Origin: an uncultured Methylomirabilota bacterium
Lineage (GTDB): Bacteria > Methylomirabilota > Methylomirabilia > Methylomirabilales > 2-02-FULL-66-22
Assembly (NCBI GenBank): GCA_963842855.1
Contig: CAWJHW010000004.1
Span: 536,630-600,629 of the forward strand
Direction: 5' to 3'
DNA length: 64,000 nucleotides
Shown here: positions 2,685 to 60,574 of the stretch, piece after piece
Layout of the letters: the number at the start of each line of letters is the position of its first letter
Numbering within the stretch: the stretch's first letter is position 1
The notes under the pieces: generated by a model
What the model was told of the DNA's origin: nothing
Databases searched by the model: none
What the model saw: only the letters and a program-made list of their open reading frames with translations
Translations under genes and position numbers: made by a program

Positions 2685-3420
2685 CCCTTTGGGCAGGGAG
2701 GAATCGAATCCTTGCCGGGGGATTATAAAGGGGGACGGAGTTCCCCTTTATCCGACTCCTGGGCGCGAAGCGACCACCAACACCGCTGGCGAAGCCCCGC
2801 GCTTCGCGCGGGGAGGGTCACGTGTGCTGAGCATGCTCGACAGCTTGGAGGTGCAAGTCCTCTCCCCAACCGGATGGAGGGGAAGGGGGAGCAACCCGCA
2901 AGGGCGTCCCCGCGAGGGGCCGTCGGAAGGAAGCGGTGCGCAAACGCGCGGGCCGAGGAACAAAAACCGGATACGAGGCGGGAGCGCCGGGCGAGCGGGC
3001 GGGTGACCGCGAAGCCCCTATCCATCAAAGGCGCAAAACGTAAATCCGGCGGGTGCGCGCGGACGGCGGTCGAGCGTACCCTCGGGAGATCTGCTCGGGG
3101 TCCCGGACGCGGGACTGGCCGCCCGGCGACGGGCGGTGATCCCCCCGGGCAGCAGGCAGCCACGGGTAGAGTCGGGGAGGGAAACGAGCCGGGAACCCCG
3201 GAGGCCGCACAGCACCAAAGGCCCGTGCGGTCCCCGGAAGGGGGGAAAGGGAGCGGCCAGTAGGAGAGTGCGCCTCATGAGCGGCAGGCGGCAGAAAAGC
3301 CAGACGGTTCTGGCCTTCCGGGCAGCGCCAAGGAGTGAAGCTCCGAAGCCGGCAGGGGAAGGGGCCGAACCGCTCACGGCGACGCGCCCACCCGAACGCC
3401 CGGCCAACACCGACCGGTTG

Positions 3421-6600: not shown

Positions 6601-7288
6601 CGACCGAGTCAATCACGACAAGCTGATGGGACAAGTGGCCAAGCGGATCACCGATCAGCGCCTGCTTCGGCTGCTCCGGGCGTTTCTCACCGCCGGAGTG
6701 CTGGCGGATGGGCTGGTGCGTCCGACCGCAGAGGGGACGCCGCAAGGCGGCCCGCTCTCGCCCCTGCTGTCGAACCTCGTGCTGGATACGCTGGACCGGG
6801 AGCTGGAGCGGCGCGGCCACCGCTTCGTGCGGTATGCGGACGATTGTAACATCTACGTCCGCAGCCACCGGGCGGGGCAGCGGGTGATGGCGAGCATCAC
6901 GCGCTTCATCACTACGACGCTCAAGCTGAAGGTCAACAGCGCGAAGAGCGCGGTGGCCCCACCAGGGGCGCGGACGTTCCTGGGGTTCTCCTTCACCCGC
7001 CCACCGGAGCCGCGACGACGGCTGGCGCCGTCCACGGTGGCCCGGTGCAAGGCGCGGGTCCGGGAAGTGACGCGGCGGACCCGAGGCGTGAGTCTGGAGA
7101 CCATGGTGCAGCAACTGGGCGCCTACCTCCGGGGCTGGCACGGCTACTTCGGCTTCTGTCAGACGCCTTCGGCGCTCACGCACCTTGACGAGTGGATCCG
7201 GCGCCGCCTCCGGTCGGCGGCCTGGAAGCAGTGGAAGCGGGGCCGGACGCGGTTCACCGAACTGCGCCGGCGCGGAGTGGGTCTCGCG
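6601..7288 (+). pseudogene. Group II intron reverse transcriptase/maturase, C-terminal segment (palm YADD plus X/maturase), 3'-truncated
   Basis: FDRVNHDKLM...GTPQGGPLSPLLSNLVLD...RFVRYADDCNIYV...FLGFSF...LGAYLRGWHGYFGF...RRRLRSAAWKQWKRGRTRFTELRRRGV. Coding stops making sense at 7289, where a second GUGUG intron 5' end begins. Confidence 0.8.
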
Positions 7289-7289
7289 T

Positions 7290-7575
7290 GTGTGCCAGGC
7301 ATGGCACAGAACGAGCGAGGTGAAAGTCCTCGCGCCAGGTTCTCGCGGAGCCGAAGGCTAGGAGCAGGGCAAGGGCGTCACCGCGAGGTGGGGTCTGGAG
7401 GAAGCCCAATCCAAACGCGCGGGGCGACGCACAGGAACCGGATACGAGGTGTGGTACACCCGGGACGAGCGGGCACGTGACCGCGAAGTCCTCCATCCGC
7501 CACGGGGTGTGCTTTATAAATCCGGCGCCTACGCGCGAAACGTTCTGTGTCTCACCCTGGGAGATCTGTCGGCTA
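7290..7575 (+). mobile_element. Second group II intron, 5' (domain I) fragment nested in the first intron
   Basis: GTGTGCCAGGCATGGCACAG...GGTGAAAGTCCTC...AACCGGATACGAGG...GTGACCGCGAAGTCCTCCATCC...AAATCCGGCG...GGGAGATCTG is collinear, at roughly two-thirds identity by eye, with 2822-3105 of the first intron. Similarity ends near 7575. Confidence 0.5.
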
Positions 7576-7968
7576 TCCGCTGGTGGTAGCATCCTCGTCA
7601 ACGTCGGGTTTCCGCCTAGGTCCTGTGCCCCGCTTGCTGTCGCTCAGCTCTCCCAGCGGTCCCGCGCTGACGCGGGTTGGTCGTTCGCAGGCCGCCCCCC
7701 GTTTCGAACTGCCTACACGGGGGGTGTACAGATGGGCGCCCCGGTATGAGGGATAACCGCACCAGTTCTGACGGATGATAGGGGTAATTGCGGAGCGACA
7801 GGAAGGAGAGAGGGGAGGTGAAATACGCATTGGAGATTATACGACTGGGACGATGTGAGTCGGGATGCGGCCGAGAATCCGAGGGGTGATTCTGCAGTGC
7901 CGCTGGTCTTTCGTGCCGCCTTTGAAAGTCACAATCGATGGACACTGCATGGATGGAGGAGTTGAGCA

Positions 7969-50138: not shown

Positions 50139-50140
50139 CG

Positions 50141-50830: not shown

Positions 50831-51903
50831 TTATGCTATTTGCCTATGGATTTAGCTCCTAATATCCGCTATCCTCTGACCAGCACTGGGAGGGGCCATG
50901 GCCAGAGGGTATGCGGAACGCAGCCTGATCGAGTTCCAGCGGACGTTCGCCTCCGAGGAAGCCTGTGCGGAGCACTTGGCACGGCACCGGTGGCCCGAGG
51001 GGTTCGTTTGCCCGCAGTGTGGGCACCGGATCGGGTGGTACCTCCCGAGACGGCACCTGTTCGACTGTCGGCGTTGCCGACACCAGACCAGCCTGACGGC
51101 GGGGACGGTTTTCCACAAGACCCGGACCCCCTTGGTCAAGTGGTACTGGCTGATCTACCACATGGCGATGGACAGGGTGGGGGTGTCGGTCGCTCAACTC
51201 CAGCGCGCGCTGGAGATCCCCGACTACAAGACCGCCTGGCTCATGGCGCACAAGGTCCGGAAGGCCAGGGCGGACCGGGATGCCGGGTATCGGCTGGTTG
51301 GCCTCGTGGAGCTGGATGAAGCCTTCTTCGGTCCCCCGGGCAAGACGCACGGCCGCGGCTCCGAGGCCAAGACCACCGTCTGGTGCGCGGTATCCCTGTA
51401 CCGGGATCAGGCCGGGCGGGAACGCCCCGGGTTCGCGCACCTGACCCTCGTGGCAGATGCCTCCACCCCGAGCATCGTGGGGGTCTTGGAGCGGCTGGGG
51501 TGCGGGCCCGCGACGGCCGAGGGGCGTCGGCTGTTGGCCGCGATCCGCACCGACGGCTGGCGGGCCTATGGGAGCGCCGCCAAGGCCAAAGGGCTTCAGC
51601 ATTGTCGCGTCGTCCTCCGGCATGCCGCCGATGCTGGCAGGCTCTTGCCATGGGTCCATCGGGTCATCTCCAACGCGAAGGCGGTCATCCGGGGGGCACA
51701 CCGCGGGGTGTCCTCCCACCACCTCCAGAGCTATCTCGGCGAAATCTGCTACCGCTTCAACCGACGCTTCTGGGAGAAGGAGTTGTTCGACCGCCTCATC
51801 CGAGCCTGTGTCTCAACCGGGACTATCACCTATGACGAACTCACCCATGACAGCGGACCAGCTAGCAAGATTAGGAGCTAAATCCATAGGCAATATGCTA
51901 TAA
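50831..51903 (+). mobile_element. IS1595-family insertion sequence
   Basis: Imperfect terminal inverted repeats with a perfect 24-nt core TGCCTATGGATTTAGCTCCTAAT (about 50841-50863) and its complement ATTAGGAGCTAAATCCATAGGCA (about 51870-51892). They flank the transposase ORF. Confidence 0.75.
50898..51881 (+). CDS. IS1595 family transposase
   Basis: N-terminal zinc ribbon (WPEGFVCPQCGH...CRRCRHQTSLTAGTVFHKT..PL..W), then a DDE region (VELDEAFFG...IRTDGWRAYG...HRVISNAK....G.H.GVS..HLQSYL.E..YRFNRR). Confidence 0.85.
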   Translation: MARGYAERSLIEFQRTFASEEACAEHLARHRWPEGFVCPQCGHRIGWYLPRRHLFDCRRCRHQTSLTAGTVFHKTRTPLVKWYWLIYHMAMDRVGVSVAQLQRALEIPDYKTAWLMAHKVRKARADRDAGYRLVGLVELDEAFFGPPGKTHGRGSEAKTTVWCAVSLYRDQAGRERPGFAHLTLVADASTPSIVGVLERLGCGPATAEGRRLLAAIRTDGWRAYGSAAKAKGLQHCRVVLRHAADAGRLLPWVHRVISNAKAVIRGAHRGVSSHHLQSYLGEICYRFNRRFWEKELFDRLIRACVSTGTITYDELTHDSGPASKIRS

Positions 51904-51924
51904 GTTACACCCAAGAGGGGCGAT

Positions 51925-52665
51925 ATGCTGAGAGCAGTCACGTTCGACCTGTGGCAGACGTTGCTCCTGGACACGCCGGAGGGATTGCGCCAGGCGCGGG
52001 CCGACCGCGTCCGCGGGATCCACGGTGTCTTGGCCCGCGAGGGGATCGCGGTAGCAGTGGCGGCAGTGGGCCAGGCCTACGATGCGGTGGGCTCGCGGCT
52101 GGAAGAGATCTGGGCGTCTCGGCGGGACGTGGGATCGCGAGGGCAGGTGCGTCTGCTCTTGGAATGTCTGGGCCTGGATGGCGCTGTACCTGCCGAAGGC
52201 GGGCTGATGGATGCCCTGGAGGAAGCCTATTGTCTTCCCATCCTCTCCGCGATGCCGATCCTCAATGCCGGCGCGCGCGCCATCCTGGAGACACTTCAAC
52301 GCCGGGGGTTGCGCCTGGGGCTGATCTGCAACACGGGGCGAACGCCCGGCAAGATGCTGCGCCTGGTCTTGGAGCGTCTGGCCCTGGCCCCCTACCTCGG
52401 CGCCCTCAGCTTTTCCGACGAGGTCGGCCTGCGGAAGCCGCACCCCGAAATCTTCCGCCGGACCCTGGCGGCCCTGGGCGTCCTGCCGACCGAGGCTGCG
52501 CACGTCGGCGACGACCCAGCCACGGACGTCGCGGGGGCGCGCGCCGTCGGGATGCGTGCCATCCACCTGTGTCATCCGTCGAGCGTCAGCCAGCCTTCGG
52601 ACGACGTCGAGAGGATTCCGACCCTGGAGGTCTTGACCGATCTGCTCTTTCCCCGCGAAAGTTAA
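51925..52665 (+). CDS. HAD-superfamily hydrolase
   Basis: AVTFDLWQTLL (motif I-like), ...LGLICNTG (motif II), ...GLRKPHPEIF (motif III K), ...HVGDDPATDVAGA (motif IV). Confidence 0.8.
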   Translation: MLRAVTFDLWQTLLLDTPEGLRQARADRVRGIHGVLAREGIAVAVAAVGQAYDAVGSRLEEIWASRRDVGSRGQVRLLLECLGLDGAVPAEGGLMDALEEAYCLPILSAMPILNAGARAILETLQRRGLRLGLICNTGRTPGKMLRLVLERLALAPYLGALSFSDEVGLRKPHPEIFRRTLAALGVLPTEAAHVGDDPATDVAGARAVGMRAIHLCHPSSVSQPSDDVERIPTLEVLTDLLFPRES

Positions 52666-52982
52666 CGCAGCTCCTCCCTCCCCTGTCCCATGCCCTGCGA
52701 GCCGGCTACGCTCCCAGACCCCGGGCACAAGGGCCTTCCCCCACGTCTTGGATTGGGGTACAATCCCCATAGCGCTCAGGCCAGCGGTTCAGTTCAAGCC
52801 GCTTTACCCGGCGGGCCGGCTTCCGCGGTCGTCGGCCTGTCGTGCGCGGGGCCCGCCGCATAAAAGCTTATTCGTTAGGCCCTTCCACACAACGAGACCG
52901 GGTATCGAGACGCCGCTCGCGAGACAGGGACCAACCCGCATGAGTGATTGGTGGGTCCTGCAAGGAGGCGGAGGAGACAGTC

Positions 52983-53870
52983 ATGCTGAAGGAGGTGGCA
53001 GCGGGTGTCCTTAGTGTCGCTTACCAGGAGACCGGAGGGCCCACCGGTACTCCGGTCCTCCTCCTGCATGGTTTTCCATACGACGTGCACGCCTACGACG
53101 CGGTGGCACCCGTCCTCGTGTCCGCCGGCTGTCGCGTCATCACGCCGTACTTGCGCGGCTATGGTCCCACACGCTTTCTGTCACCGGACACGCCGCGCTC
53201 AGGCCAGCAGGCAGCGCTGGCGCACGATCTCCGTGCCCTCATGGACGCCCTGGCGATCCCGCGCGCGGTACTCGCTGGGTACGACTGGGGAGGACGTGCG
53301 GCCTGTATCGTCGCTGCGCCGTGGCCCGACCGGGTACGTGGGCTCGTCTCGGGAGGGGGCTACGGCTACAACATTCAGGACATTGCGGGAGCGCTCAAGC
53401 CGCAGGCGCCCGAGACGGAGCGTCGGTACTGGTACCAATACTATTTTCAGACCGCGCGCGGCCGCGCTGGCCTCGCCCAAAATCGCCGCGCGTTGTGCAA
53501 GCTCCTCTGGCAGCTGTGGTCGCCCAACTGGCGCTTCGATGACGCGACGTACGCGCAGACCGCCGTTTCCTTCGACAACCCGGATTTCGTCGATGTCGTC
53601 ATCCACGCGTACCGGCATCGCTACGGGGTCGTGCCCGGAGACCCGGCGGTCGAGGACATCGAACGCCAGTTGGCGACCCAGCCGCGAATCACTGTGCCGA
53701 CAATCGCCCTGCATGGCGCGGCGAACGGTGTGCTCCCTTCGGGCGGGTCCGAGCAGCAGGGCCGATTGTTTACTGCGGCATACGAGCACCGTGTGATTCC
53801 TGTGGTGGGCCACAATCTTCCTCAGGAAGCGCCACAGGACTTTGCCGCCGCGGTCCTCTCGCTTATCTAG
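52983..53870 (+). CDS. Alpha/beta hydrolase (epoxide hydrolase / haloalkane dehalogenase-like)
   Basis: VLLLHGFPYDVHAYD..., nucleophile elbow LAGYDWGGRAA, and C-terminal ...VVGHNLPQEAPQ (catalytic His region). Start chosen at the internal ATG preceded by GGAGGAG. Confidence 0.8.
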   Translation: MLKEVAAGVLSVAYQETGGPTGTPVLLLHGFPYDVHAYDAVAPVLVSAGCRVITPYLRGYGPTRFLSPDTPRSGQQAALAHDLRALMDALAIPRAVLAGYDWGGRAACIVAAPWPDRVRGLVSGGGYGYNIQDIAGALKPQAPETERRYWYQYYFQTARGRAGLAQNRRALCKLLWQLWSPNWRFDDATYAQTAVSFDNPDFVDVVIHAYRHRYGVVPGDPAVEDIERQLATQPRITVPTIALHGAANGVLPSGGSEQQGRLFTAAYEHRVIPVVGHNLPQEAPQDFAAAVLSLI

Positions 53871-53914
53871 CCCGCCCGCAAGAGAGCCGGCGACGCGCGG
53901 CGGTGTGGGAAAGG

Positions 53915-54241
53915 GCCTAACATGGCCATCGACTCGGACCCTTGCAAGCGGGCTTCGCCCGCCCGCTTCGGGCCGGTCATTGCCGTCGATGCGCCGACGC
54001 GCGCGGCCGTCGCTCCGGTCCAGTCGGATGACCCCGGGTGGCTCCATCCCCCCGAGCCCGGCGGCGCACGCGAGGCTGGCCGCGGACCGCGCCGGCGCGA
54101 GGCAGTCGGCGCATCGGGGCGGCGGATAGACCTCCGCGTGCTGGCGCCGCTCGCGCGGCCCATCACGCGGATGCAGCCGCCACCGGCTTCGGCGAGCTAG
54201 CTCGCCATCGCCCGCGCGGCTGATCCGCCGCCCCGTTGGGC
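53915..54241 (+). repeat. attC-like recombination site, giant composite form (327 bp)
   Basis: Starts with GCCTAAC (RYYYAAC) 45 nt after the upstream stop and ends with GTTGGGC (GTTRRRY). It contains long hairpin H1 (GATGCGCCGAC...GTCGGCGCATC) and hairpin H2 (GGGGCGGCGG...CCGCCGCCCC). Confidence 0.5.
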
Positions 54242-54258
54242 AGACATTCGGAGGTCCC

Positions 54259-54960
54259 GTGCGTAGACCGCAGCGACGGCCGGGAGTTGCTTACAGCCGC
54301 GTTGACCTCTCGCACTACCATCTCTATGCAGCGTTCCTTTTTGTGTTGCATGCCGAGCGACTCGAGGAGAAGGCCTCGCCCATGGGCGGGTCCGATGCCC
54401 TCTTCCGGTACAGATCCTTCGTCATGGGTGCCATCCTGTCTTCAGTCGCGTTTCTCGAGGCGAAGGTCGCGGAACTGGGGACCGATGCAGCCGATGGTCC
54501 GTTCGTAGGCTTGTCAGCCACCGGCCTCACGGCGGCTCAGTGCACTGCGTTGGAGGCTGCCCTGAACGTTCACGCACCGCTCCTTGAGCGATATCAGGCG
54601 GCGCTGCGCGCCCTCGCTAAAAGCCCCTTCAAGGCCGACCGGCAACCGTATCGCGCGGTCGCCCTCGTTGTCGCCCTAAGGAACTTCCTCGTCCATTTCC
54701 CCGCCGAGTGGCACGCACATCCAAACGGCGAGTCTAGTCCGCTCCTGCAACGAGAGTTGCCGCTTATCGAGCGTCAGCTGAGGCGCCAGTTCCCGTCCAC
54801 GAAGTTCGCGGATCCCTCGAGGCCGTTCTTTCCCGACCACTGCCTCTCGGCGGGCTGTGCGCGGTGGGCTGCTGAGGCTAGTCTGCTCTTCGCACGCGAG
54901 TTCTCCGCGAGAGCTGGGGTGCCCATGATCCATCCGCGACCAATCCTGAGGGGCGTGTAG
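54259..54960 (+). CDS. Cassette ORF: alpha-helical protein with a HEPN-like RNxxxH motif
   Basis: GTG start 5 nt after GGAGG. ...VVALRNFLVHFPAEW fits Rx4-6H. No other family features recognised. Confidence 0.5.
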   Translation: MRRPQRRPGVAYSRVDLSHYHLYAAFLFVLHAERLEEKASPMGGSDALFRYRSFVMGAILSSVAFLEAKVAELGTDAADGPFVGLSATGLTAAQCTALEAALNVHAPLLERYQAALRALAKSPFKADRQPYRAVALVVALRNFLVHFPAEWHAHPNGESSPLLQRELPLIERQLRRQFPSTKFADPSRPFFPDHCLSAGCARWAAEASLLFAREFSARAGVPMIHPRPILRGV

Positions 54961-54965
54961 GTGCT

Positions 54966-55228
54966 GCCCAACATGGCCGTGAAGGTGTCGGCCCACGCTG
55001 CCACGGGTCGTGCTTGCGCACGCCCCGCACCACCGTGTCCCGCAGCGTACGGTCGACGATGCGCCGACGCGAGCGCTCGCCGCGCCGGGTAGCGGACAGC
55101 TTCGAGCCAGGCCCTTGGGCTGGTGATAGACAGTTGCTCAGTTGCCCCATCGACGCCTCCGACCGGCCCGGCGGCGCCTGGCAGTCGGCGCATCGGGGCG
55201 GCGTCTTGGGGACGCCGCCCCGTTGGGC
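54966..55228 (+). repeat. attC-like site, composite form (263 bp)
   Basis: GCCCAAC at 54966, 6 nt after the stop, and GTTGGGC at 55222. H1 has the same 11-nt arms but a different interior. H2 is reduced to GGGGCGGCG-tcttgggga-CGCCGCCCC. Confidence 0.5.
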
Positions 55229-55486
55229 ACGAGGAGCGGAGGTCCTGCCTTCCGCGAAGACCTCGCCATGAATGGTCAGTGATAGAGATTTCCAGAACCA
55301 CGCGGTCTTCAGTGAGTTGGAACGGTACATTGCGTTCTACAAGCACTTCGCTGATTCAGTGTTCAGCTTCGTCTCGCTGGGTACAAGGGCCATCTGCAAC
55401 ATCGACTCTTACCTCCTTTCCTCGATCCAGGGAACACTGACATCAATACGAACGATTCTTAGCGACGGGCGGATCAACGACGCCTA

Positions 55487-56772
55487 TGCAGAGCCGGCCC
55501 CGAAAAATAGGACAGGCGTTTAAGTGAAAACTCTGCTCTACTGGACGGGACGAATCGCCGTCCCACAAGGAGAGCAGCCCATGAAACGGTCCCGACGGAA
55601 TCACGCACCGGCCTTCAAGGCCAAGGTGGCCCTGGCCGCCTTGAAAGGGGATCGCACCCTAGCCGAGTTGGCGCAGCAGTTTGATGTCCACCCCAACCAG
55701 ATCACGCAGTGGAAGGCCCAGCTCCTGGAGCGGGCGCTGGAGCTCTTCGCCACCCCGGCCGAGCGTCAGGCCGGCGCGCCCGACGTGAAGGCCCTCCACG
55801 CGAAGATCGGCCAGCTGGCCATGGAGAACGATTTTTTGGCCGGCGCGCTCGGTCGGCTCCCCGATGCGAGCGGCACGCGATGATTACCCCCCAGCACCCC
55901 CTGTCGGTGACGCGTCAGTGTCGTCTGGTGGCCGTGGCCCGGTCATCGGTGTACTACACGCCCCAACCGGTCCCGGCGGCCACCCTGGCCCTGATGCGGC
56001 AGCTCGACGAACTGCATCTCCAGCATCCCTTTGCCGGCAGCCGGATGCTCCGGGACCTGCTGCGCCTCCACGGCGTGCCCGTGGGGCGCAAGCACGTGGC
56101 CACCCTGATGCGCCGGATGGGGATTGACGCGCTCTACCGGCACCCCCGGACCACCCAGCCGCACCCGGGGCACCGGGTGTTCCCGTACCTGTTGCGCTCC
56201 CTGGACATCACGGCCCCCAACCAGGTGTGGGCCATGGACCTGACGTACATTCCGATGCGCCGGGGCTTCCTCTACCTGGTCGCCGTGCTGGACTGGGCGA
56301 CCCGCCGGGTCTTGGCCTGGCGCCTCTCGAACACCCTGACCGGGGACTGTTGCCTGGACGCCCTGGACACCGCGATCCGGGCTCACGGCTGTCCCAGGAT
56401 CCTGAACACCGACCAGGGCAGTCAGTTCACCGGCACGGCCTTCGTCGACCTCGTGCAGCAGCATGGCATCGCACTCAGCATGGACGGCAAGGGGGCCTGG
56501 CGCGACAACCTCTTCGTCGAGCGCCTGTGGAAGAGCGTGAAATACGAGGAAGTGTACCTGCATGCCTATGACACCGTGGCCGAGGCCCAGCAGCACCTGG
56601 CCGTCTACTTTGCCTTTTACAATCAGGGCCGGCCTCACGCGGCGCTGGACGGCCAGACCCCCGATATGGTTTACTTCGCCGCGTTGCCTCAGCTCGAGGC
56701 AGCGTAACGTGACCCCGGCAGAGTGTCACTTATCACGCCTGGTTTGCTGTCCAACTCTGTGGGGCCACCGCA
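55487..56772 (+). mobile_element. IS3-family insertion sequence
   Basis: Ends TGCAGAGCCGGCCCC... and ...GGGGCCACCGCA (TG...CA termini, imperfect IRs sharing GGACAG and GCGT.TAAGTGA.ACTC blocks). ATGC is present at both junctions, so the exact boundary is ambiguous by 1-4 nt. Confidence 0.75.
55581..56707 (+). CDS. IS3 family transposase OrfA/OrfAB (programmed -1 frameshift at T TTT TTG, 55832-55838)
   Basis: OrfA: MKRSRRNHAPAFKAKVALAALKGDRTLAELAQQFDVHPNQITQWK (HTH), then a leucine-zipper-like region. The slippery heptamer lies in the zero frame. The -1 frame continues into the DDE integrase core (...WAMDLTYIPM...LNTDQGSQFT...ERLWKSVKYEEVY). Confidence 0.8.
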
Positions 56773-57353
56773 TGCTTTGCTCCGAAAGTACTACGACTCG
56801 GCAATCATAAACATCTGCTCAAATCTGTACCTTCAAGACCACTTCAGCATCGAGAACTTCATTGTCGAGAAGATAGACAACTGGCTGAAGGGAAAGGATC
56901 AACTTCCCGAGTACAGGATTATGTCACAGTACATCCGTTCCTCGCCAAGAGTCGCTCCCATCACTGCCCTTGTGTTCGCCGACGACCGGTACAAGCGGCT
57001 CAGGGATCGCTGCAACGACCACACACATTACAACTTCTATCGCAACGTGCTTCTCAACGACAACAAGATATTCCTTCCCGATCGGCGCCGGGCGTTGGAC
57101 ACATTCTCGGATGACGTGCGAGATGTGCTAATACTGCACGTCGCATACTTGTTCTTCGCAAGCGGTCATTACATGATGTCAAGCGACTACCGGGACTCCA
57201 TGGACTGTGGAATGACGCCAGAACCCGACTCGGAATATTGGGTTGCCCCCTTCGTTCAAGACATTTTCGATCAGACTGTGGTGAAGGAGCGTCCGGACAT
57301 AGCCGCCATCATAAGGCAGCACACGAGCATGCATCTCGCATGAACAACGGAGA

Positions 57354-57659
57354 GCCCAACAAGCCGGATGCACGCGACGGCTTACAGCCGCGCGTGATCC
57401 GCAACGATGCGCCGACGCGCGCGGCCGTCGCGCCGATCCAGTCGGGGGACCCGGCCGGCTCCATGCCTTCGAGCCCGGCGGCGCACGAATAGGTTGGCCG
57501 TGGACCGCGCCGGCGCTACGCAGTCGGCGCATCGGGACGGCGGATAGGCCTCCGCGTGCTGGGGCCGCTCGCGCGGCCCATCGCGCGGATGCAGCCGGCA
57601 GTCGCTCCGGTGAGTTCCCTCGCCGTCCCGCCTGCGGCTGATCCGCCGCCCCGTTAGGC
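57354..57659 (+). repeat. attC-like site, giant composite form (306 bp)
   Basis: GCCCAAC at 57354 and GTTAGGC at 57653. The H1 and H2 modules are about 85-90 percent identical by eye to those at 53988-54234 and 59336-59584. Confidence 0.5.
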
Positions 57660-57676
57660 AGATGAAGGAGAACGCG

Positions 57677-58261
57677 ATGCTGACGACCTTCAATGCGCAG
57701 AGTGCCCGCGCACAGTTCGAGAACAGGATCGGCAGTCTTGAGGCGGACACCAAGCGATGCTTCTGGGAGATTCCGGGCGGTCCGGGAGCCGCCTTCTTTC
57801 CGGCGGTTCTCTACGCATTCGCGACGATTGACTACTTCTCCAGCTACTGGGCTGGTTGGAATGACTCTGGTGGCGACCGAGCGAAGAACCAGACGAACCG
57901 ACTGACGAGCTTCATGGTCAAGTACCTCGGCTACGCTGCGAAGGAGTCGAAGATTGCCGTAAACATCTGGCGCCATAAGCTCATGCACACAGGGGAACCC
58001 CGGGTGCTCCGAGCGCGTACTGGAAGTGAACGATACCTTTGGGAGACGGGGATAAACCTGCAGAATCACCTTAAGCTTGACCCTACAGGAGCGCCGAACG
58101 AGTTTGCGATCCGTTTTGACTCGTACGCCATCGTCCGTGATCTGCGCATTGGCGTGTTCGGATCTTCAGGATACCTTCAAGATCTCTCTGCCTCTCAGGA
58201 CCTTCAGCAGAAGTTCCTTGCGTGCTTCAACGAGATGGAGACCTATACCGTCGATGTCTGA
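57677..58261 (+). CDS. Cassette ORF: hypothetical protein with RHKLMH (Rx4H) motif
   Basis: ATG at 57677 follows GAAGGAG. ...VNIWRHKLMHTGEP. Low GC relative to the flanks. Confidence 0.5.
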   Translation: MLTTFNAQSARAQFENRIGSLEADTKRCFWEIPGGPGAAFFPAVLYAFATIDYFSSYWAGWNDSGGDRAKNQTNRLTSFMVKYLGYAAKESKIAVNIWRHKLMHTGEPRVLRARTGSERYLWETGINLQNHLKLDPTGAPNEFAIRFDSYAIVRDLRIGVFGSSGYLQDLSASQDLQQKFLACFNEMETYTVDV

Positions 58262-58288
58262 AGAGCACGAAAACTCGCGCGCGCGGCA

Positions 58289-58367
58289 GCCCAACTCCGG
58301 GCTGCAACGGACGGGGCTTCGCCCCGCCGCACGCGACGGGGTGCGCTCAGCCGCCGCCCCGTTAGGC
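58289..58367 (+). repeat. attC-like site, canonical size (79 bp)
   Basis: GCCCAAC...GGCTG...CAGCCGCCGCCCC-GTTAGGC. It shares the 3' arm CCGCCGCCCCGTTAGGC with the giant sites. Confidence 0.55.
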
Positions 58368-58376
58368 GGGCGCCAC

Positions 58377-59234
58377 ATGGGACGCAAGCTGCCACCAATT
58401 GCCGTAGTGCAGCCCGAGTTGCGGGCCGTGGCCCGACTGACACAGCCAGCCCTTGGGCGCTGCGTCATCGACCGGGCATCTCGCAATGCCGGCCTCCATG
58501 CAGTGGTCCTCGGACTCCTCACTTGGGCTCTCGCTGAAGCCTTGTGTATTGCGGAGGCCTGCCGATCTGAGGCACCGCCACAGGGCATCAGTCCGAATGT
58601 GCGATCGATGCTCGAATCACTTATTACGATTCTCTACCTCGCAGACCCCTCAGTGACGCAGCGCGAGCGGAGGCGACGCCTTGATCGGTACTACAGAGGC
58701 GTTCGAAGAGAGCAGGTGAAGCTTCGCAGCGCCCTCGACCTCTACCCAGCCATGAGGGCTGCTCTCATCAAAGACCCTATCCTCATCGATCGCGAGAAAA
58801 CAGAGTTTGCTCGAAAAGAGGCGTTGTTCCCCAAAGCCGAGCAGCTCGGTAGTCGGCACTGGTCTGGTCTACCGCATGGCTTGCAGAGCCTCGCAGAGGC
58901 TGTAGGCTTGGGTTCCGATTACGCGCTTCAGTACAGGCTTCACTCCGGCGCCACGCACGCAAATCGGCCCTGGGATCAGGTGCCGTTTCGTGCACACCGT
59001 TCATCAGTCATTCCGACACTGGCGGAGAACAGGGCGGCCGGCGCTCCGCATTCGTTCGATGCGTTGCGCTATCTGGCATGGTGCCTAGCCGCGGCCCACG
59101 ACTGCGGTGCTCTGACCCTCACCCCAAGCGAGCAAAGGGCCCTGGGTCAGCGTCGACATTATTTGCAGCCGATAGAGGTCCTTTTCGCTAAGGGCATCGT
59201 GGGTAGCGGGCCCATCACCACCCCGACACCGTGA
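58377..59234 (+). CDS. Cassette ORF: hypothetical alpha-helical protein (RLHSGATH motif)
   Basis: The first ATG after the attC core is at 58377. The longer ORF from 58077 would read through the attC site and the previous cassette, so it is rejected. ...LQYRLHSGATHANRPW. Confidence 0.5.
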   Translation: MGRKLPPIAVVQPELRAVARLTQPALGRCVIDRASRNAGLHAVVLGLLTWALAEALCIAEACRSEAPPQGISPNVRSMLESLITILYLADPSVTQRERRRRLDRYYRGVRREQVKLRSALDLYPAMRAALIKDPILIDREKTEFARKEALFPKAEQLGSRHWSGLPHGLQSLAEAVGLGSDYALQYRLHSGATHANRPWDQVPFRAHRSSVIPTLAENRAAGAPHSFDALRYLAWCLAAAHDCGALTLTPSEQRALGQRRHYLQPIEVLFAKGIVGSGPITTPTP

Positions 59235-59241
59235 GCGACCT

Positions 59242-59591
59242 GCCTAACAAGCGCTTGCAGTTGCCGGGCCGCGGACGCAGATTGGCACAGGGTGAGAGGC
59301 ACGTGGTGGGGTGGGTCCGCAACTGAAGCGCTGGCGATGCGCCGACGCGCGCGGCCGTCGCTGCGGTCCAGTCGGATGACCCCGGCTGGCTGGATATCCC
59401 CCAGCCCGGCGGCTCACAATAGGTTGGCCGCGGACCGCGCCGGCGCGAGGCAGTCGGCGCATCGGGGCGGCGGCCTCGGGACGCCGCGTGCTGGGGCCGC
59501 TCGCGCGGCCCATCACGCGGATGCAGCCGGCAGTCGCTCCGGCGAGTTTCCTCGCCGTCCCGCCTGCGGCTGATCCGCCGCCCCGTTAGGC
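59242..59591 (+). repeat. attC-like site, giant composite form (350 bp)
   Basis: GCCTAAC at 59242, 8 nt after the stop, and GTTAGGC at 59585. Contains H1 and H2. Confidence 0.5.
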
Positions 59592-59613
59592 ACCAAGGAG
59601 AACAAGTAGGGGC

Positions 59614-59642
59614 TTGACGGATGGCCTAGTTCTGGCTATGAT
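59614..59642 (+). promoter_or_regulatory. Sigma70-like promoter of the TA cassette
   Basis: TTGACG (59614-59619), a 17-nt spacer, then TATGAT (59637-59642), 10 nt upstream of the toxin ATG. Confidence 0.4.
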
Positions 59643-59651
59643 CTGGCCAGA

Positions 59652-59945
59652 ATGCAATATGACCTCGTCCTGGCGCCTGAGGCTGCTCGCCAGTACACGG
59701 GCCTACCGGCCTATCTCCGCGCCCAGGTTCGCGATGCGCTGGAGAAGCACCTCCGGCATGACCCGGGCAGGACGAGTCGCAGCCGGATCAAGCGCCTCCG
59801 GGGCCTTGTGCGACCCCAATATCGGCTCCGGGTTGGGGAGATCCGCGTCTACTACGACGTGGCGGACCCGGTGGTCGAGATCCTTGCCATCATTCGGAAG
59901 TCAGAGGCCGAGCGCTGGCTGGGAGAAAAGGGTGAGCCCGAATGA
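59652..59945 (+). CDS. RelE/ParE family type II toxin
   Basis: 97 aa, ...RIKRLRGLVRPQYRLRVGEIRVYYDV.D..VEILAI..K. It overlaps the downstream antitoxin by 4 nt. Confidence 0.8.
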   Translation: MQYDLVLAPEAARQYTGLPAYLRAQVRDALEKHLRHDPGRTSRSRIKRLRGLVRPQYRLRVGEIRVYYDVADPVVEILAIIRKSEAERWLGEKGEPE

Positions 59946-60187
59946 AAAGGATTCCGCTGTCTGAAGTGAAGGATGATCTCTCGCGCTGTCTCCGGGAAGC
60001 AGAGAAGGAAGAGGTCGTGATTACCCGCCACGGCAAACCCGCCGGGATTCTCATCGGCTTCGGATCGGAGGACGACTGGTTCGACTATCGGCTGGAGCAC
60101 GACCCACGCTTCCTCAAGCGAATAGAGGCCGCCCGCCGTAGCCTTCGGGTCGGCAAGGGGATCCCTCTTGAGCAACTCGAAGAATGA
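59942..60187 (+). CDS. Phd/YefM family type II antitoxin
   Basis: 81 aa, MKRIPLSEVKDDLSRCLREAEKEEVVITRHGKPAGILIGF. Confidence 0.8.
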   Translation: MKRIPLSEVKDDLSRCLREAEKEEVVITRHGKPAGILIGFGSEDDWFDYRLEHDPRFLKRIEAARRSLRVGKGIPLEQLEE

Positions 60188-60197
60188 CACCCCCGGT

Positions 60198-60260
60198 GCC
60201 TAACACGGCGATGGAGGCCGGCGCCACAAGGCGGCGCGGATCATCGCCCGGACGTTAGAC
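60198..60260 (+). repeat. attC site, canonical (63 bp)
   Basis: GCCTAAC-ac-GGCGATG...CATCGCC-cggac-GTTAGAC. The R''/R' cores and the L''/L' 7-bp pairing, with extra unpaired bases on one arm, match classic attC architecture. Confidence 0.7.
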
Positions 60261-60289
60261 AGGTACGAGGGGAATGAAGAGAAGGGGAG

Positions 60290-60574
60290 CTAGATGCGGC
60301 GGGAGGCGCGATTCTCGTCGCGCCAGAGCCGCCGTCGCTCCCCCGGGCTCAGGCTTCCGTCGCTCTTGAACCGCTGCTCCTCTCCCGCAATGCCCAACTG
60401 CTCTCGCTCGAGCCGGGCCGCCTCACCGGGCTCTGGACCGGGGCTGGCGCGGCGAGCCCGAGGCCCAGAATCAGGCTGCCACTCATTGCCCATGTCAATC
60501 CTGCGCGGCGTCGAGTCACGAATGGCCTCCTTGTGGTAGATTGTCATGAGGAGAATGTCTTGCCATCCATCCAC
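60290..60574 (-). CDS. Hypothetical small protein
   Basis: 94-aa ORF. The C-terminal ...EAARLEREQLGIAGEEQRFKSDGSLSPGERRRLWRDENRASRRI looks like a repetitive charged periplasmic-type protein. Weak support. Confidence 0.3.
   Translation of the reverse strand: MDGWQDILLMTIYHKEAIRDSTPRRIDMGNEWQPDSGPRARRASPGPEPGEAARLEREQLGIAGEEQRFKSDGSLSPGERRRLWRDENRASRRI

Follow-up and report, generated by a model that had tools for sequence, protein, structure and literature searches.

Long attC-like junctions in a Methylomirabilota cassette array read as ordinary attC sites followed by a gene-less unit

The cassette array and its long junctions

The window analysed here, a 64-kb stretch of DNA from an uncultured Methylomirabilota bacterium, carries an array of gene cassettes between positions 52874 and 60260. 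The array begins on the side of a HAD gene and holds an alpha/beta-hydrolase cassette, the cassettes B, C and D, a DUF5677 cassette and a toxin-antitoxin cassette of the ParE/Phd type, the attC of which (60198-60260) is the final site of the array, before RmuC (see Table 1). Cassette C is split by an IS3 element. Within the array a covariance model of attC hairpins, R1, has nine matches at E below 0.1. The term CALIN stands for a cluster of attC sites lacking an integron-integrase (PMC4889954), and since no intI was found in the window, either by Pfam searches of the flanking ORFs or in a tblastn search with the integrase of another locus (L078), the array is a CALIN.

The original prediction drew attention to four junctions of 263-350 bp, and these are indeed present: J1 (53915-54241, 327 bp), J2 (54966-55228, 263 bp), J3 (57354-57659, 306 bp) and J4 (59242-59591, 350 bp) each run from R'' GCCYAAC to R' GTTRGGC, and these outer cores fit the patterns R'' RYYYAAC and R' GTTRRRY. 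Inside, the four junctions share one layout, the two arms GATGCGCCGAC/GTCGGCGCATC of a hairpin H1, then GGGGCGGCGG...CCGCCGCCCC (H2), then GTTRGGC. The H1 arms are 11 nt long and exact in all four junctions, as had been claimed; their spacing, given at first as about 110-130 nt, measures 106 nt in J1, J3 and J4 and 115 nt in J2. When one mismatch is allowed the arms have nine matches in the window, eight of which are those of J1-J4, while the ninth, at 50140, carries one mismatch; in shuffled controls the mean is 2.9 matches and one shuffle in 100 reaches nine. For CCGCCGCCCCGTTRGGC, at up to two mismatches, there are seven matches against 0.12 expected. Four are in the long junctions and one is in the short site at 58289-58367 (match at 58351-58367), for which a shared arm had been noticed. 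The other two are on the minus strand with two mismatches each (54109-54125 and 59457-59473) and correspond, as reverse complements, to the H1 3′ arm together with GGGGCGGCGG in J1 and J4. The 5′ H2 arm of J3 reads GGGACGGCGG.

Three of the copies, J1, J3 and J4, are clearly homologous in a gapped alignment, as first supposed; their identity, estimated by eye at about 85-90%, is 65-90% without gaps, depending on the segment. The fourth, J2, does keep the arms together with a minimal H2 and has a different interior. This interior had been taken for covariation-like divergence and instead belongs to a second conserved family: among the matches listed, from all sources, 96 copies are of type A and 32, J2 included, are of type B.

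Table 1. Positions of the array features in the window, with scores of covariance model R1.
Feature	Position	Strand	Remarks
First crossover core of the array, GTTAGGC	52874..52880	+	HAD-gene-side upstream sequence conserved in relatives; downstream cassettes differ
J1 H0, attC of alpha/beta-hydrolase cassette	53915..53987	+	R'' GCCTAAC; R1 24.7 bits
GATGCGC at R' position of J1 H0	53988-53994	+	
J1 gene-less unit	53988..54241	+	R1 match 54158-54231, 35.1 bits, E 2e-5
J1 unit, H1 type A	53988-54115	+	
J1 unit, small hairpin	54116-54137	+	
J1 unit, box GTGCTGG..GCGCG	54138-54157	+	
J1 unit, own attC	54158-54241	+	GCCCATC 54158-54164; L'' 54167-54179; L' 54217-54228; R' GTTGGGC 54235-54241
J2 H0, attC of cassette B	54966..55057	+	R'' GCCCAAC; long loop; R1 17.4 bits, E 0.09 (weak); also in L087
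J2 gene-less unit, short form	55058..55228	+	H1 type B 55058-55194 (115 nt interior)
J2 unit end	55222-55228	+	GTTGGGC, preceded by 27-nt hairpin GGGGCGGCGTCTTGGGGACGCCGCCCC
J3 H0, ordinary attC body (52 nt) of cassette C	57354..57405	+	R1 49 bits (training member)
J3 gene-less unit	57406..57659	+	R1 match 57576-57649, 33.4 bits
J3 unit, H1 type A	57406-57533	+	
J3 unit, hairpin and conserved box	57534-57575	+	
J3 unit, own attC	57576-57659	+	GCCCATC 57576-57582; L'' 57585-57597; L' 57635-57646; GTTAGGC 57653-57659
Short ordinary attC of cassette D	58289..58367	+	GCCCAAC ... GTTAGGC; R1 23.2 bits
J4 H0, attC of DUF5677 cassette	59242..59335	+	R'' GCCTAAC; R1 match 59242-59334, 35.2 bits
J4 gene-less unit	59336..59591	+	R1 match 59508-59581, 37.7 bits, E 6e-6
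J4 unit, H1 type A	59336-59463	+	
J4 unit, hairpin and conserved box	59464-59507	+	
J4 unit, own attC	59508-59591	+	GCCCATC 59508-59514; L'' 59517-59529; L' 59567-59578; GTTAGGC 59585-59591
Toxin-antitoxin genes	59652-59945, 59942-60187		Pfam ParE_toxin and PhdYeFM
Short ordinary attC closing the ParE/Phd toxin-antitoxin cassette	60198..60260	+	GCCTAAC ... GTTAGAC; R1 33.8 bits

Anatomy of the junctions

The variable left part of each junction, H0, has the anatomy of an ordinary attC of the upstream cassette, with R'', a covarying L box, extrahelical bases and an ORF upstream. In an alignment of 24 H0 hairpins 89% of the cells are paired and compensatory changes are found in 12 of the 16 pairs; no shuffle out of 500 attains this, and controls slid along the sequence are 28-44% paired. 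The partner of the L'' beside R'' is the L' that closes H0, 180-250 nt ahead of the distal R', and the sequence in front of the distal R' pairs inside H2, not with the L'' beside R''. Within the window the exact R' position of H0 is occupied by GATGCGC, so the complementary GTTRRRY is missing there. Model R1 was trained on H0 hairpins only. All of its matches at E < 0.01 in the 64-kb window are on the plus strand and within the array, those outside the array having E-values of 0.47 or worse; the weak match of the J2 H0 (E 0.09) also lies inside it.

What follows H0 is a unit of 171-256 bp. Its 5′ end, G|ATGCGCCGAC, lies at the would-be G|TT crossover of the upstream attC and its 3′ end is ...CCGCCGCCCC-G|TTRGGC. 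The cargo between is non-coding and consists of H1 (128 or 137 nt), a small hairpin and a conserved box, GTGCTGGGGCCGCTCGCGCG; GTCGGCGCATC, which forms the 3′ arm of H1, is perfectly complementary to the unit's 5′ end. Among the matches listed, GGGGCGGCGG comes after H1 in 106 of 128 copies.

In J1, J3 and J4 the long H2 contains a second attC, which starts with GCCCATC and is matched by R1 at 33-38 bits (E 6e-6 to 5e-5). H2, described earlier as a hairpin abutting GTTAGGC, is thus more than a single hairpin when long, as a full attC-like site lies within it. This site is composed of R'' GCCCATC, 2 nt, an L'' with one extrahelical G, a variable loop, L', CGCCCC and R'. Across the 51-52 distinct long copies among the matches listed, the 12 pairs of its L box are about 98% paired, and two positions switch fully (C-G in 26 copies against A-T in 23, and G-C in 26 against C-G in 24). 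In 48 of 51 of these copies a G is the extrahelical base. H0 and the 3′ portion of the long H2 are built like canonical attC sites (59-base elements): the cores are inverted, the L box has an extrahelical base, the spacers are unpaired, the loop varies, and the site is oriented downstream of the cassette content. In contrast to canonical sites, H0 has GATGCGC at R' and the unit's attC has GCCCATC at R'', and a junction of 263-350 bp is not one attC.

For the unit of J2, model R1 finds no attC of its own. This unit and other copies with a short H2 are probably deletion derivatives that lost the attC. Thus the alternative considered at the outset, in which each long junction resolves into two attC sites flanking a cassette free of ORFs, describes J1, J3 and J4 with inner cores GAT/ATC, and fails for J2 with its short hairpin.

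Single-strand DNA folding of both strands, put forward earlier as a check, gives three tandem hairpins, H0, H1 and H2, on the top strand (z = -3.2) and on the bottom strand (z = -4.6). The closing stem of R'' with R' appears in the minimum-energy fold of the top strand only, whereas the bottom-strand fold leaves the cores unpaired. In known integrons it is the bottom strand that recombines.

Occurrence, empty sites and divisibility

The gene-less unit is found at no fewer than 120 metagenome loci, from sediment and soil, and in eight of 17 matches in genome collections, four of these eight being in MAGs labelled NC10/Methylomirabilota. As the loci were selected by exact H1 arms, the invariance of the arms outside the window follows from the selection. 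In a sediment metagenome the units have roughly 10-20 times the word depth of the cassettes beside them, which fits a multi-copy element.

Among the matches listed there are 102 distinct upstream contexts; in 54 the unit abuts an attC matched by R1, in six the 3′ end of an intI lies at most 400 nt upstream, and most of the remaining contexts are attC-like by eye. On both sides the unit boundaries fall at the G of R'. Abundance of the module outside attC contexts, as in a generic REP or MITE, had been named at the outset as grounds for rejecting the reading; none of the copies in 137 loci (among the matches listed) was seen outside cassette arrays or attI-like contexts. In the window itself the four copies lie within about 5.7 kb (53915-59591), and the 56 kb outside the array hold none. 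At two loci (L078 and L054) the unit occupies the first cassette position, 28 nt past the stop codon of an intI whose product matches TIGR02249 at 464-466 bits against a cut-off of 265. Integrases with the unit in first position are 71-99% identical, and those of the unit-bearing clade are co-oriented with their cassettes.

Locus L038 is 98.8% identical to window positions 51772-53988 and has the same J1 H0, followed by GTTAGCC and another cassette; L087 is 97.6-98.4% identical and has the J3 H0, followed by GTTATAC and another cassette. Both loci have the window's cassettes as well as its H0, and they are empty sites for J1 and J3. Loci L066 and L038 share the window from 51772/51912 to 52876 and then diverge or carry different cassettes, and contigs X1 and X5 join the first array core (52874-52880) to other content. 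In L133 a different cassette stands ahead of the J4 unit, which is accompanied by the toxin-antitoxin cassette and the flanking chromosome, and the switch falls precisely at G|ATGCGCC. Identity is 96-98% in the flanks and only about 89% between the H1 of L133 and that of J4, and this exchange at the left boundary could also reflect homologous recombination between the many copies.

Could a long junction still be a single giant composite attC, in which the distal R''/R' form one R box, H0, H1 and H2 are branches, and recombination involves the whole only? The closing stem of the top-strand fold around three hairpins speaks for this, and so do the distal cores, which are complementary, perfectly in J2 and J4 and with one wobble or mismatch in J1 and J3. 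The absence of a second attC from J2 also agrees with it. Furthermore, the inner cores are mismatched in the central triplet, which might often make the unit move as one with the upstream cassette. However, the same H0 is a complete short attC with a canonical R' in the empty sites L038 and L087, the L'' beside R'' pairs, with strong covariation, with the L' of H0 and not with the distal L', a second full attC lies inside H2, the unit can stand directly after intI with no H0, and the cores are left unpaired in the bottom-strand fold. The whole junction is also divisible, for in L133 the unit has a different upstream partner and in L038 and L087 the cassettes end in H0 plus a GTT core. We regard the single giant site as exceedingly improbable. 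The idea of a new, much larger attC architecture is not supported, given that L'' pairs with an L' that ends at GATGCGC and that the short attC sites of L038 and L087 have a GTT core and neither H1 nor H2.

Taken together, the complete H0, the empty sites and the second attC in H2 therefore argue that H1+H2 form a gene-less cassette of their own. Each long junction is very probably the ordinary attC of the upstream coding cassette plus a separate gene-less unit with its own attC. For the full reading, in which this unit is an independent integron cassette with mobility mediated by an integrase, we estimate a probability of about 0.65. A circle junction or a precise excision product, that is, the same neighbours joined without the unit, was not found in the contigs. 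A pattern search for tandem units or circle junctions merely matched the reverse complement of every unit, and the lone apparent case of an ATC core followed by H1 was a mis-aligned ordinary attC.

Core change, cargo and known systems

The inner cores are non-canonical. The R'' of its attC deviates from RYYYAAC and reads GCCCATC in 51 of 52 distinct long copies among the matches listed. It is complementary to the unit's 5′ end, GATGCGC, at six of seven positions, triplet included. Among the matches listed, the R1 matches in the fetched loci form three groups, 54 of the AAC type followed by GTT, 52 of the AAC type followed by GATGCGCCGAC and 35 of the ATC type followed by GTT; GAT is therefore specific to the gene-less unit. 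The change from GTT/AAC to GAT/ATC is a joint one of the 5′ end, G|ATGCGC, and the R'', GCCCATC. The integrases IntI1, IntI2 and IntI3 insert cassettes at a 5′-GWT-3′ consensus and cut after the G (10.1101/2022.09.11.507474), so that G|AT is a legitimate integrase crossover. The left boundary thus resembles attG secondary sites (GWT), with a crossover after G ahead of A-T (10.1101/2022.09.11.507474). Unlike attG, where the targets are double-stranded and genomic, the GAT of the unit is a heritable cassette 5′ end that is matched by a compensating ATC in a folded attC.

We infer mobilisation by IntI along the following lines. An integron integrase encoded elsewhere in the genome would excise the unit as a circle, in which GCCCATC would pair with G|ATGCGC, the central triplet having a T-A pair instead of A-T. 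Re-insertion by the integrase would then take place either at attI or at the G|TT of another attC. The first six bases of the unit, ATGCGC, would travel along with it, so that every attC ahead of a unit would get GATGCGC instead of GTTRRRY. When integrated, GTCGGCGCATC and the cassette 5′ end would fold as the H1 hairpin, and in the circle both would extend the stem of the recombination site. Some observations count against the cassette model. For example, the central triplet of both flanking R boxes is mismatched in the integrated state (A·A at H0, T·T at the unit's attC), the H1 3′ arm competes with GCCCATC for pairing with the unit's 5′ end, intI is missing from the window, and the circle of a short form such as J2 would be a perfect palindrome without extrahelical bases.

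In a more far-reaching reading, an active cassette family has co-evolved its R box from AAC/GTT to ATC/GAT; insertion would leave these mismatches in the preceding attC and in the unit's own, excision would heal both, and the unit could serve as a reversible lock or spacer that tunes the excision of its neighbours, the H1 clamp hiding the hybrid core. This reading seems to us unlikely. If true, the integrases of this clade would recombine a folded attC with a T-A pair at a triplet position thought to be invariant. The two triplets lie more than 160 nt apart when integrated and would meet only in the excised circle, and their paired change is a natural experiment on what integron integrases need of an attC core.

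The boundaries also bear on whether the unit is a MITE- or REP-like element, moved by a transposase encoded elsewhere (for example of the IS1111-attC or the single-strand HUH type) that targets the R' end of attC. Elements that target attC are known, namely IS1111-attC and the group IIC-attC introns, and the precedent favours such an element. The unit is moreover short, non-coding and of high copy number, the perfect 11-nt inverted repeats of H1 enclose either of two interchangeable interiors, and the left boundary is GAT, not the canonical GTT. That said, target-site duplications are absent from the flanks, and since the H1 repeats are internal to the unit, its ends GATGCGCC... and ...CCGCCCCG do not form an inverted repeat. 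Both boundaries match the integrase crossover point to the base. The attC carried by the unit covaries and has an extrahelical base and a canonical R', the unit is also found at attI-like sites behind intI, and Rfam has no group II intron or other family in it. A transposase-driven origin is on this evidence highly unlikely. The original prediction had offered a palindromic MITE-like coloniser of attC sites, which was right in that a separate repeated unit sits at the G|TT of many unrelated attC sites; the own attC, the lack of target-site duplication and the ends are not those of a MITE.

As with IS1111-attC and the group IIC-attC introns, the unit is repeated and specific to the recombination sites of cassettes. 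With a length of 1-2 kb, those elements encode a transposase or reverse transcriptase, or at least possess ribozyme domains, whereas the unit is 171-256 bp, non-coding, has its own attC and lacks an Rfam intron match. REP/BIME and MITE sequences are likewise short, GC-rich, hairpin-forming, multi-copy and intercistronic. They are scattered genome-wide in intergenic regions, with terminal inverted repeats or target duplications, but the unit is confined to the array within the 64-kb window and is bounded by integrase crossover points.

The unit is without a protein-coding gene. The interior of type A H1 occurs in lengths of 105, 106 and 107 nt with 1-nt indels, has stops in most frames, and shows no three-base periodicity in its variation. 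The consensus structure predicted from 78 distinct type A H1 copies is limited to the arms and short stems next to them; compensatory changes occur in none of its 23 pairs, and a structured H1 interior is therefore unsupported. Neither the interior, tried as a degenerate attC, nor the short hairpin after H1, tried as a miniature one, is matched by R1. A scan found no sigma-70-like promoter or intrinsic terminator in any unit. The sole promoter-like site of the scan belongs to the toxin-antitoxin cassette. Rfam gave nothing credible in the junctions, either for the whole window at the gathering threshold or for 52600-60400 at E up to 1, the matches to sucC (E 0.043) and ASdes (E 0.8) both being far below gathering scores. 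Group II introns are matched by Rfam elsewhere in the window, outside the junctions. One metatranscriptome holds 7% of the sampled words and is uninformative because its contigs do not cover the units.

These results concern a further explanation, that the unit is a fixed functional spacer under selection (a structured RNA, a terminator or insulator, an mRNA stabiliser or a protein-binding site), spread more by gene conversion or homologous recombination than by an integrase. The H1 ends and the 20-nt box are strongly conserved in samples from wetland, peat, sediment, soil and groundwater, the unit is repeatedly first after intI beside integrases of 71-99% identity, and its sequence is mosaic between close relatives (L133 against J4), all of which agree with a spacer. 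There is also precedent, in that gene-less cassettes of Vibrio often carry promoters (10.1101/2023.11.21.568050). Against it are the lack of compensatory pairs in the H1 interior, of promoters and terminators, and of Rfam matches. We consider the spacer a doubtful account, although it is compatible with the cassette explanation and the two are non-exclusive. The cargo is most likely a selfish cassette or a structural or regulatory spacer.

Paralogous non-coding cassettes are already known from Vibrio, and the unit is a new variant among them. The gene-less cassettes of Vibrio and of oral Treponema occur several per array, are more than 80% identical between species, are absent outside their lineage, and have been debated as selfish or regulatory elements (PMC1382264; 10.1101/2023.11.21.568050; PMC6557892). 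Like them, the unit is short, ORF-less, placed between crossover cores and equipped with its own attC. It differs in its lineage of GC-rich uncultured bacteria, for which NC10/Methylomirabilota is the prevailing MAG label, in cores of GAT/ATC, not GTT/AAC, and in a cargo that is closed by the 11-nt H1 clamp, cassette 5′ end included, and that has no promoter-like sequence. Highly paralogous non-coding cassettes would thus exist beyond Vibrio, in distant uncultured lineages too.

Because its inner cores are non-canonical, the unit visually merges with the preceding attC. Such junctions are likely to be misread, by eye and probably by attC-finding software, as over-long attC sites or unexplained spacers, and reading them as an attC plus a gene-less GAT/ATC cassette corrects the cassette boundaries in a group of environmental integrons. 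The short attC of cassette D has a canonical R'', but in its 3′ half it is kin to one of the loop/L' variants that the attC of the gene-less unit shows (cf. L007, L117 and L042).

Anatomy of the long junctions

Four junctions of the cassette array were originally predicted to be giant composite attC sites built from two long hairpins. Our analyses point to a different anatomy, with a probability of about 0.9: hairpins H1 and H2 together are a gene-less cassette ("the unit") that lies where ordinary attC sites have their crossover. The junctions themselves (J1-J4) are at the predicted positions (see table). Their H1 arms, GATGCGCCGAC/GTCGGCGCATC, are indeed perfect in all four and have no other exact match in the window. 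At up to one mismatch the arms match 9 times in the window against 2.9 expected, and CCGCCGCCCCGTTRGGC at up to two mismatches occurs 7 times against 0.12 expected. The arms are 106 nt apart in J1, J3 and J4, which can be aligned over the entire conserved part, and 115 nt apart in J2. The description of J2 holds for the retained arms (with ~25 nt inside each arm in common), the different interior and the H2 of only 27 nt; the interior, which had been read as a covariation-like pattern, represents a separate family (type B). Folded as single-stranded DNA, J1 forms three tandem hairpins, a variable H0, then H1, then H2, with energies that beat those of shuffled sequences (z = -3.2 and -4.6).

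The sequence left of H1 repeatedly reads GCCYAAC, ~2 nt, an L'' box (e.g. GCGGCTGCACCCGAC), a loop, an L' box (e.g. GCGGGTGAGCCGC) and ~3 nt. Directly after H0, at the exact position of GTTRRRY, stands GATGCGCC. In successive copies the pre-H1 sequence is a textbook attC. When 24 H0 hairpins are aligned, a 16-pair stem is 89% paired, with compensatory changes in 12 of its pairs; none of 500 shuffles was as good, and slid controls were 28-44% paired.

Three metagenome contigs of very close relatives of the window's organism were compared, two of them with empty sites. L038 is 98.8% identical to positions 51772-53988 and has the same hydrolase cassette and H0, followed by GTTAGCC and another cassette. 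L087 (97.6-98.4% identical, without the IS3 element) carries the J3 H0, followed by GTTATAC and another cassette. L133 shares with the window the J4 unit, the toxin-antitoxin cassette and the chromosomal flank, with another cassette and another H0 before G|ATGCGCC. From these comparisons H0 is a complete attC that recombines independently, and H1+H2 forms a unit of its own that begins, on its left, at a cassette boundary. A single giant attC is rejected, since H0 alone is an attC, occurs complete with a GTT core at the empty sites of L038 and L087, and is followed in J1, J3 and J4 by a second attC within H2.

A second attC and the putative circular form

This second site was found with R1, a covariance model of the 24 H0 hairpins only, R' left out, applied with filters off to the complete window. 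All matches with E < 0.01 are on the + strand inside the array; the J2 H0 is a weak match there (E 0.09, + strand), and everything at E 0.47 or worse falls outside. The matches in the array comprise the four H0, two short attC sites and three extra sites, which are the 3' parts of long H2 and read GCCCATC-AC-GCGGATGCAGCCG-loop-CGGCTGATCCGC-CGCCCC-GTTRGGC. The alternative raised beside the giant site, two ordinary attC sites around an ORF-less cassette, is what we find in J1, J3 and J4, except that the inner cores read GAT/ATC. By R1, J2 and the other short-H2 copies, like several odd intermediates, have no attC of their own; they look like products of deletion between repeated CGCCGC motifs.

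Among 51-52 distinct long copies, the 12 L-box pairs of the unit's attC are ~98% paired. Two positions switch completely, GCGGAT-G-CAGCCG with CGGCTGATCCGC versus GCGGCT-G-GAGCCG with CGGCTCAGCCGC. The base left unpaired is G in 48/51, and 51/52 have GCCCATC as their first seven bases. R1 made 179 distinct matches in the fetched loci: 54 are AAC-type followed by GTT, 52 AAC-type followed by GATGCGCCGAC, 35 ATC-type followed by GTT and 38 others, mostly AAC-type before other sequence (27). G|AT boundaries were also seen at L033 ~187, at L042 ~8700 and, in L048/L069, after the unit: GATGGGCCGAC stands before a protein-coding cassette, CCCC-GATGTGT and CCCC-GATCGTT after units. Given the few other G|AT boundaries, GAT cores are rare, yet not exclusive to the H1 unit.

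Once a cassette is integrated, the six bases that follow the G derive from its own R'. The unit begins ATGCGC and its attC GCCCATC; in an excised circle these ends would come together as the R box, pairing at 6/7 positions with a perfect ATC/GAT triplet. The T to A (R') and A to T (R'') changes are >160 nt apart in the array and would meet only in the circle, which we infer to be the simplest reason for the conservation of both GAT and ATC. The H1 3' arm exactly complements the first 11 bases of the unit and, while the unit is integrated, pairs with them as H1. In the circle, this arm and GGGGCGGCGG/CCGCCGCCCC could form a perfect ~22-bp stem around H2, as an alternative to R-box pairing. Class 1-3 integron integrases cleave GWT secondary sites just behind the G (10.1101/2022.09.11.507474), so G|AT is within the known range for double-stranded targets. 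Integrase-mediated mobility via the GAT/ATC site is somewhat favoured.

In the cargo, conservation covers the outer ~25-30 nt of H1 and a 20-nt box before GCCCATC. The H1 interior has no compensatory pairs and no coding signal, Rfam gave no match in the unit, and a scan of the units found no promoter-like or terminator-like sites. Non-coding cassette families of Vibrio reach up to 45 copies per array, are >80% identical between species and absent outside the genus, and are possibly selfish or functional (PMC1382264, Boucher et al.); a later study describes promoters in many gene-less cassettes (10.1101/2023.11.21.568050). The present unit belongs to the kind seen in Vibrio, but differs in its lineage, its paired GAT/ATC core and its H1 clamp. 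The latter two are why it resembles part of the preceding attC.

Distribution and neighbouring integrases

The module is also common outside the window. With both H1 arms and a 95-125 nt gap as the pattern, species-representative genomes gave 17 matches, with the module in 8, 4 of these in MAGs labelled NC10/Methylomirabilota; the others look like chance. Metagenomes gave at least 120 loci. The H1 interiors cluster into two families with identical arms, type A (96 copies, J1/J3/J4 included) and type B (32, J2 included) among the matches listed, where GGGGCGGCGG directly follows the 3' arm in 106/128 copies. Each type is found with short (~25 nt) and with long (~120-135 nt) H2, which ends CCCC-GTTnnnn; the bases after GTT vary between copies, as expected of a crossover point. 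Word depth of units in a sediment metagenome is ~10-20x that of flanking cassettes, which fits a multi-copy element.

GTGTGTGCCAGGCATG recurs at the R' position after ordinary attC bodies (L054 ~554, L108 ~2253, L134 ~10325, L116 ~126, L086 ~5599); it may represent another element, or another family of cassettes, that does not start with GTT. In L005, L113 and L132 the H1 3' arm runs straight into GTAAGTGGGGACGTAGGTTC and an ORF of HTH type, which is probably an insertion sequence. At L010 ~2040 the unit is broken by sequence with TAATGCG(GGACG) repeats that resembles the end of a transposon.

In many loci, tblastn and a search for tyrosine-recombinase motifs revealed integron integrases beside units, in every case co-oriented with the cassettes. 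Those of L078 and L054 are full-length (392 aa) and score 464-466 bits against TIGR02249 "integron integrase" (cut-off 265). Their ORF extensions enter a region of repeated (G)AAATAGAC(T/A)G motifs ending ...CTACTTGTA-G|ATGCGCC; in L078 the region with repeated AAATAGAC motifs precedes the unit, which starts 28 nt after the intI stop codon. This region is probably an attI overlapping the intI 3' end. The unit is the first cassette behind intI in six distinct contexts, whose integrases are 71-99% identical to one another. That is the expected place of newly integrated cassettes; the unit could equally be kept there for a function.

A second recurrent pre-H1 sequence, ...CTTATGCGGACCCAGATACTCAATA|GATGCGCC with direct TTATxCGGAC repeats (L007 5880-5987, L048, L075, L112, L057), is probably another attI type; in L057 it lies ~175 nt downstream of an integrase that shares 56% identity with the L078 integrase. 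At L026 2767-2960 an N-terminal intI fragment (aa 21-82, 48% identity) is cut off by GATGCGCCGAC, which passes without a break into the attC loop and L' of a unit and then GTTCGGC: a truncated unit within a broken integrase gene, just downstream of the HAD homologue.

The array and its surroundings

The six cassettes encode an alpha/beta hydrolase, two unknowns (one split by an IS3-family element), another unknown, DUF5677 and a ParE/Phd toxin-antitoxin, and all close with GCCYAAC ... GTTRGRC. The array is flanked upstream by a HAD hydrolase and an IS1595 transposase, and downstream by RmuC and a citrate transporter. Pfam on flanking ORFs and tblastn with a confirmed integrase found no integron integrase in the 64 kb. 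In the terms of PMC4889954 this array counts as a CALIN, or cluster of attC sites lacking an integron-integrase.

Features of the window and of two integrase loci (locus coordinates for the latter)
Feature	Positions	Strand	Remarks
Cassette array	52874-60260	+	six cassettes
J1	53915-54241		327 bp
J2	54966-55228		263 bp
J3	57354-57659		306 bp
J4	59242-59591		350 bp
Extra R1 site	54158-54231	+	33-38 bits
Extra R1 site	57576-57649	+	33-38 bits
Extra R1 site	59508-59581	+	33-38 bits
Non-coding stretch, HAD gene to first GTTAGGC	52666-52880		210 bp
Hydrolase cassette, first 21 nt	52874-52894
Hydrolase cassette, 21 nt ending in R''	53901-53921
IS3-family element	55486-56771		in cassette C
HTH_Tnp_1 ORF	55524-55883		in IS3 element
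rve ORF	ending 56707		in IS3 element
Sigma-70-like promoter	59614-59642		TTGACG-17-TATGAT
Weak attC-like R1 match	60392-60433		14 bits, E 0.47
Stretch missing from L133	60433-60546		114 bp
Group II intron D1-D4 (RF02001)	2906-3077	+	105 bits
Group II intron D1-D4 (RF02001)	7377-7550	+	126 bits
intI and adjoining region, L078	2775-3981	minus	ORF ~54 aa beyond end of integrase profile
intI and adjoining region, L054	2359-3565	minus	ORF ~54 aa beyond end of integrase profile

The non-coding stretch before the first GTTAGGC is kept in relatives as far as GTT and the cassettes beyond differ (L066, L038, X1/X5 contigs). It behaves like an attI, though without a nearby intI. Relatives have lysine-biosynthesis genes (LysX-like, semialdehyde dehydrogenase) upstream of HAD, where the window has the IS1595 transposase. 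Cassette C is intact in L087 and in a sediment contig; at the joint of its IS3 element 4 bases (ATGC) are ambiguous, which would fit a short target duplication. The two ends of the hydrolase cassette are 86% complementary, so the attC stem in its circle would extend ~14 bp past the R box. The H1 arms of the gene-less unit are built in the same way as this ordinary cassette.

The sole sigma-70-like promoter of the array is just past J4, before the ParE/Phd cassette. Beyond the array, the weak attC-like match adjoins the stretch missing from L133, which is elsewhere 96-98% identical. Around the second group II intron match, positions 7287-7578 are 91.7% identical to L086 2503-2803; L086 bears a cassette array with H1 units as well.
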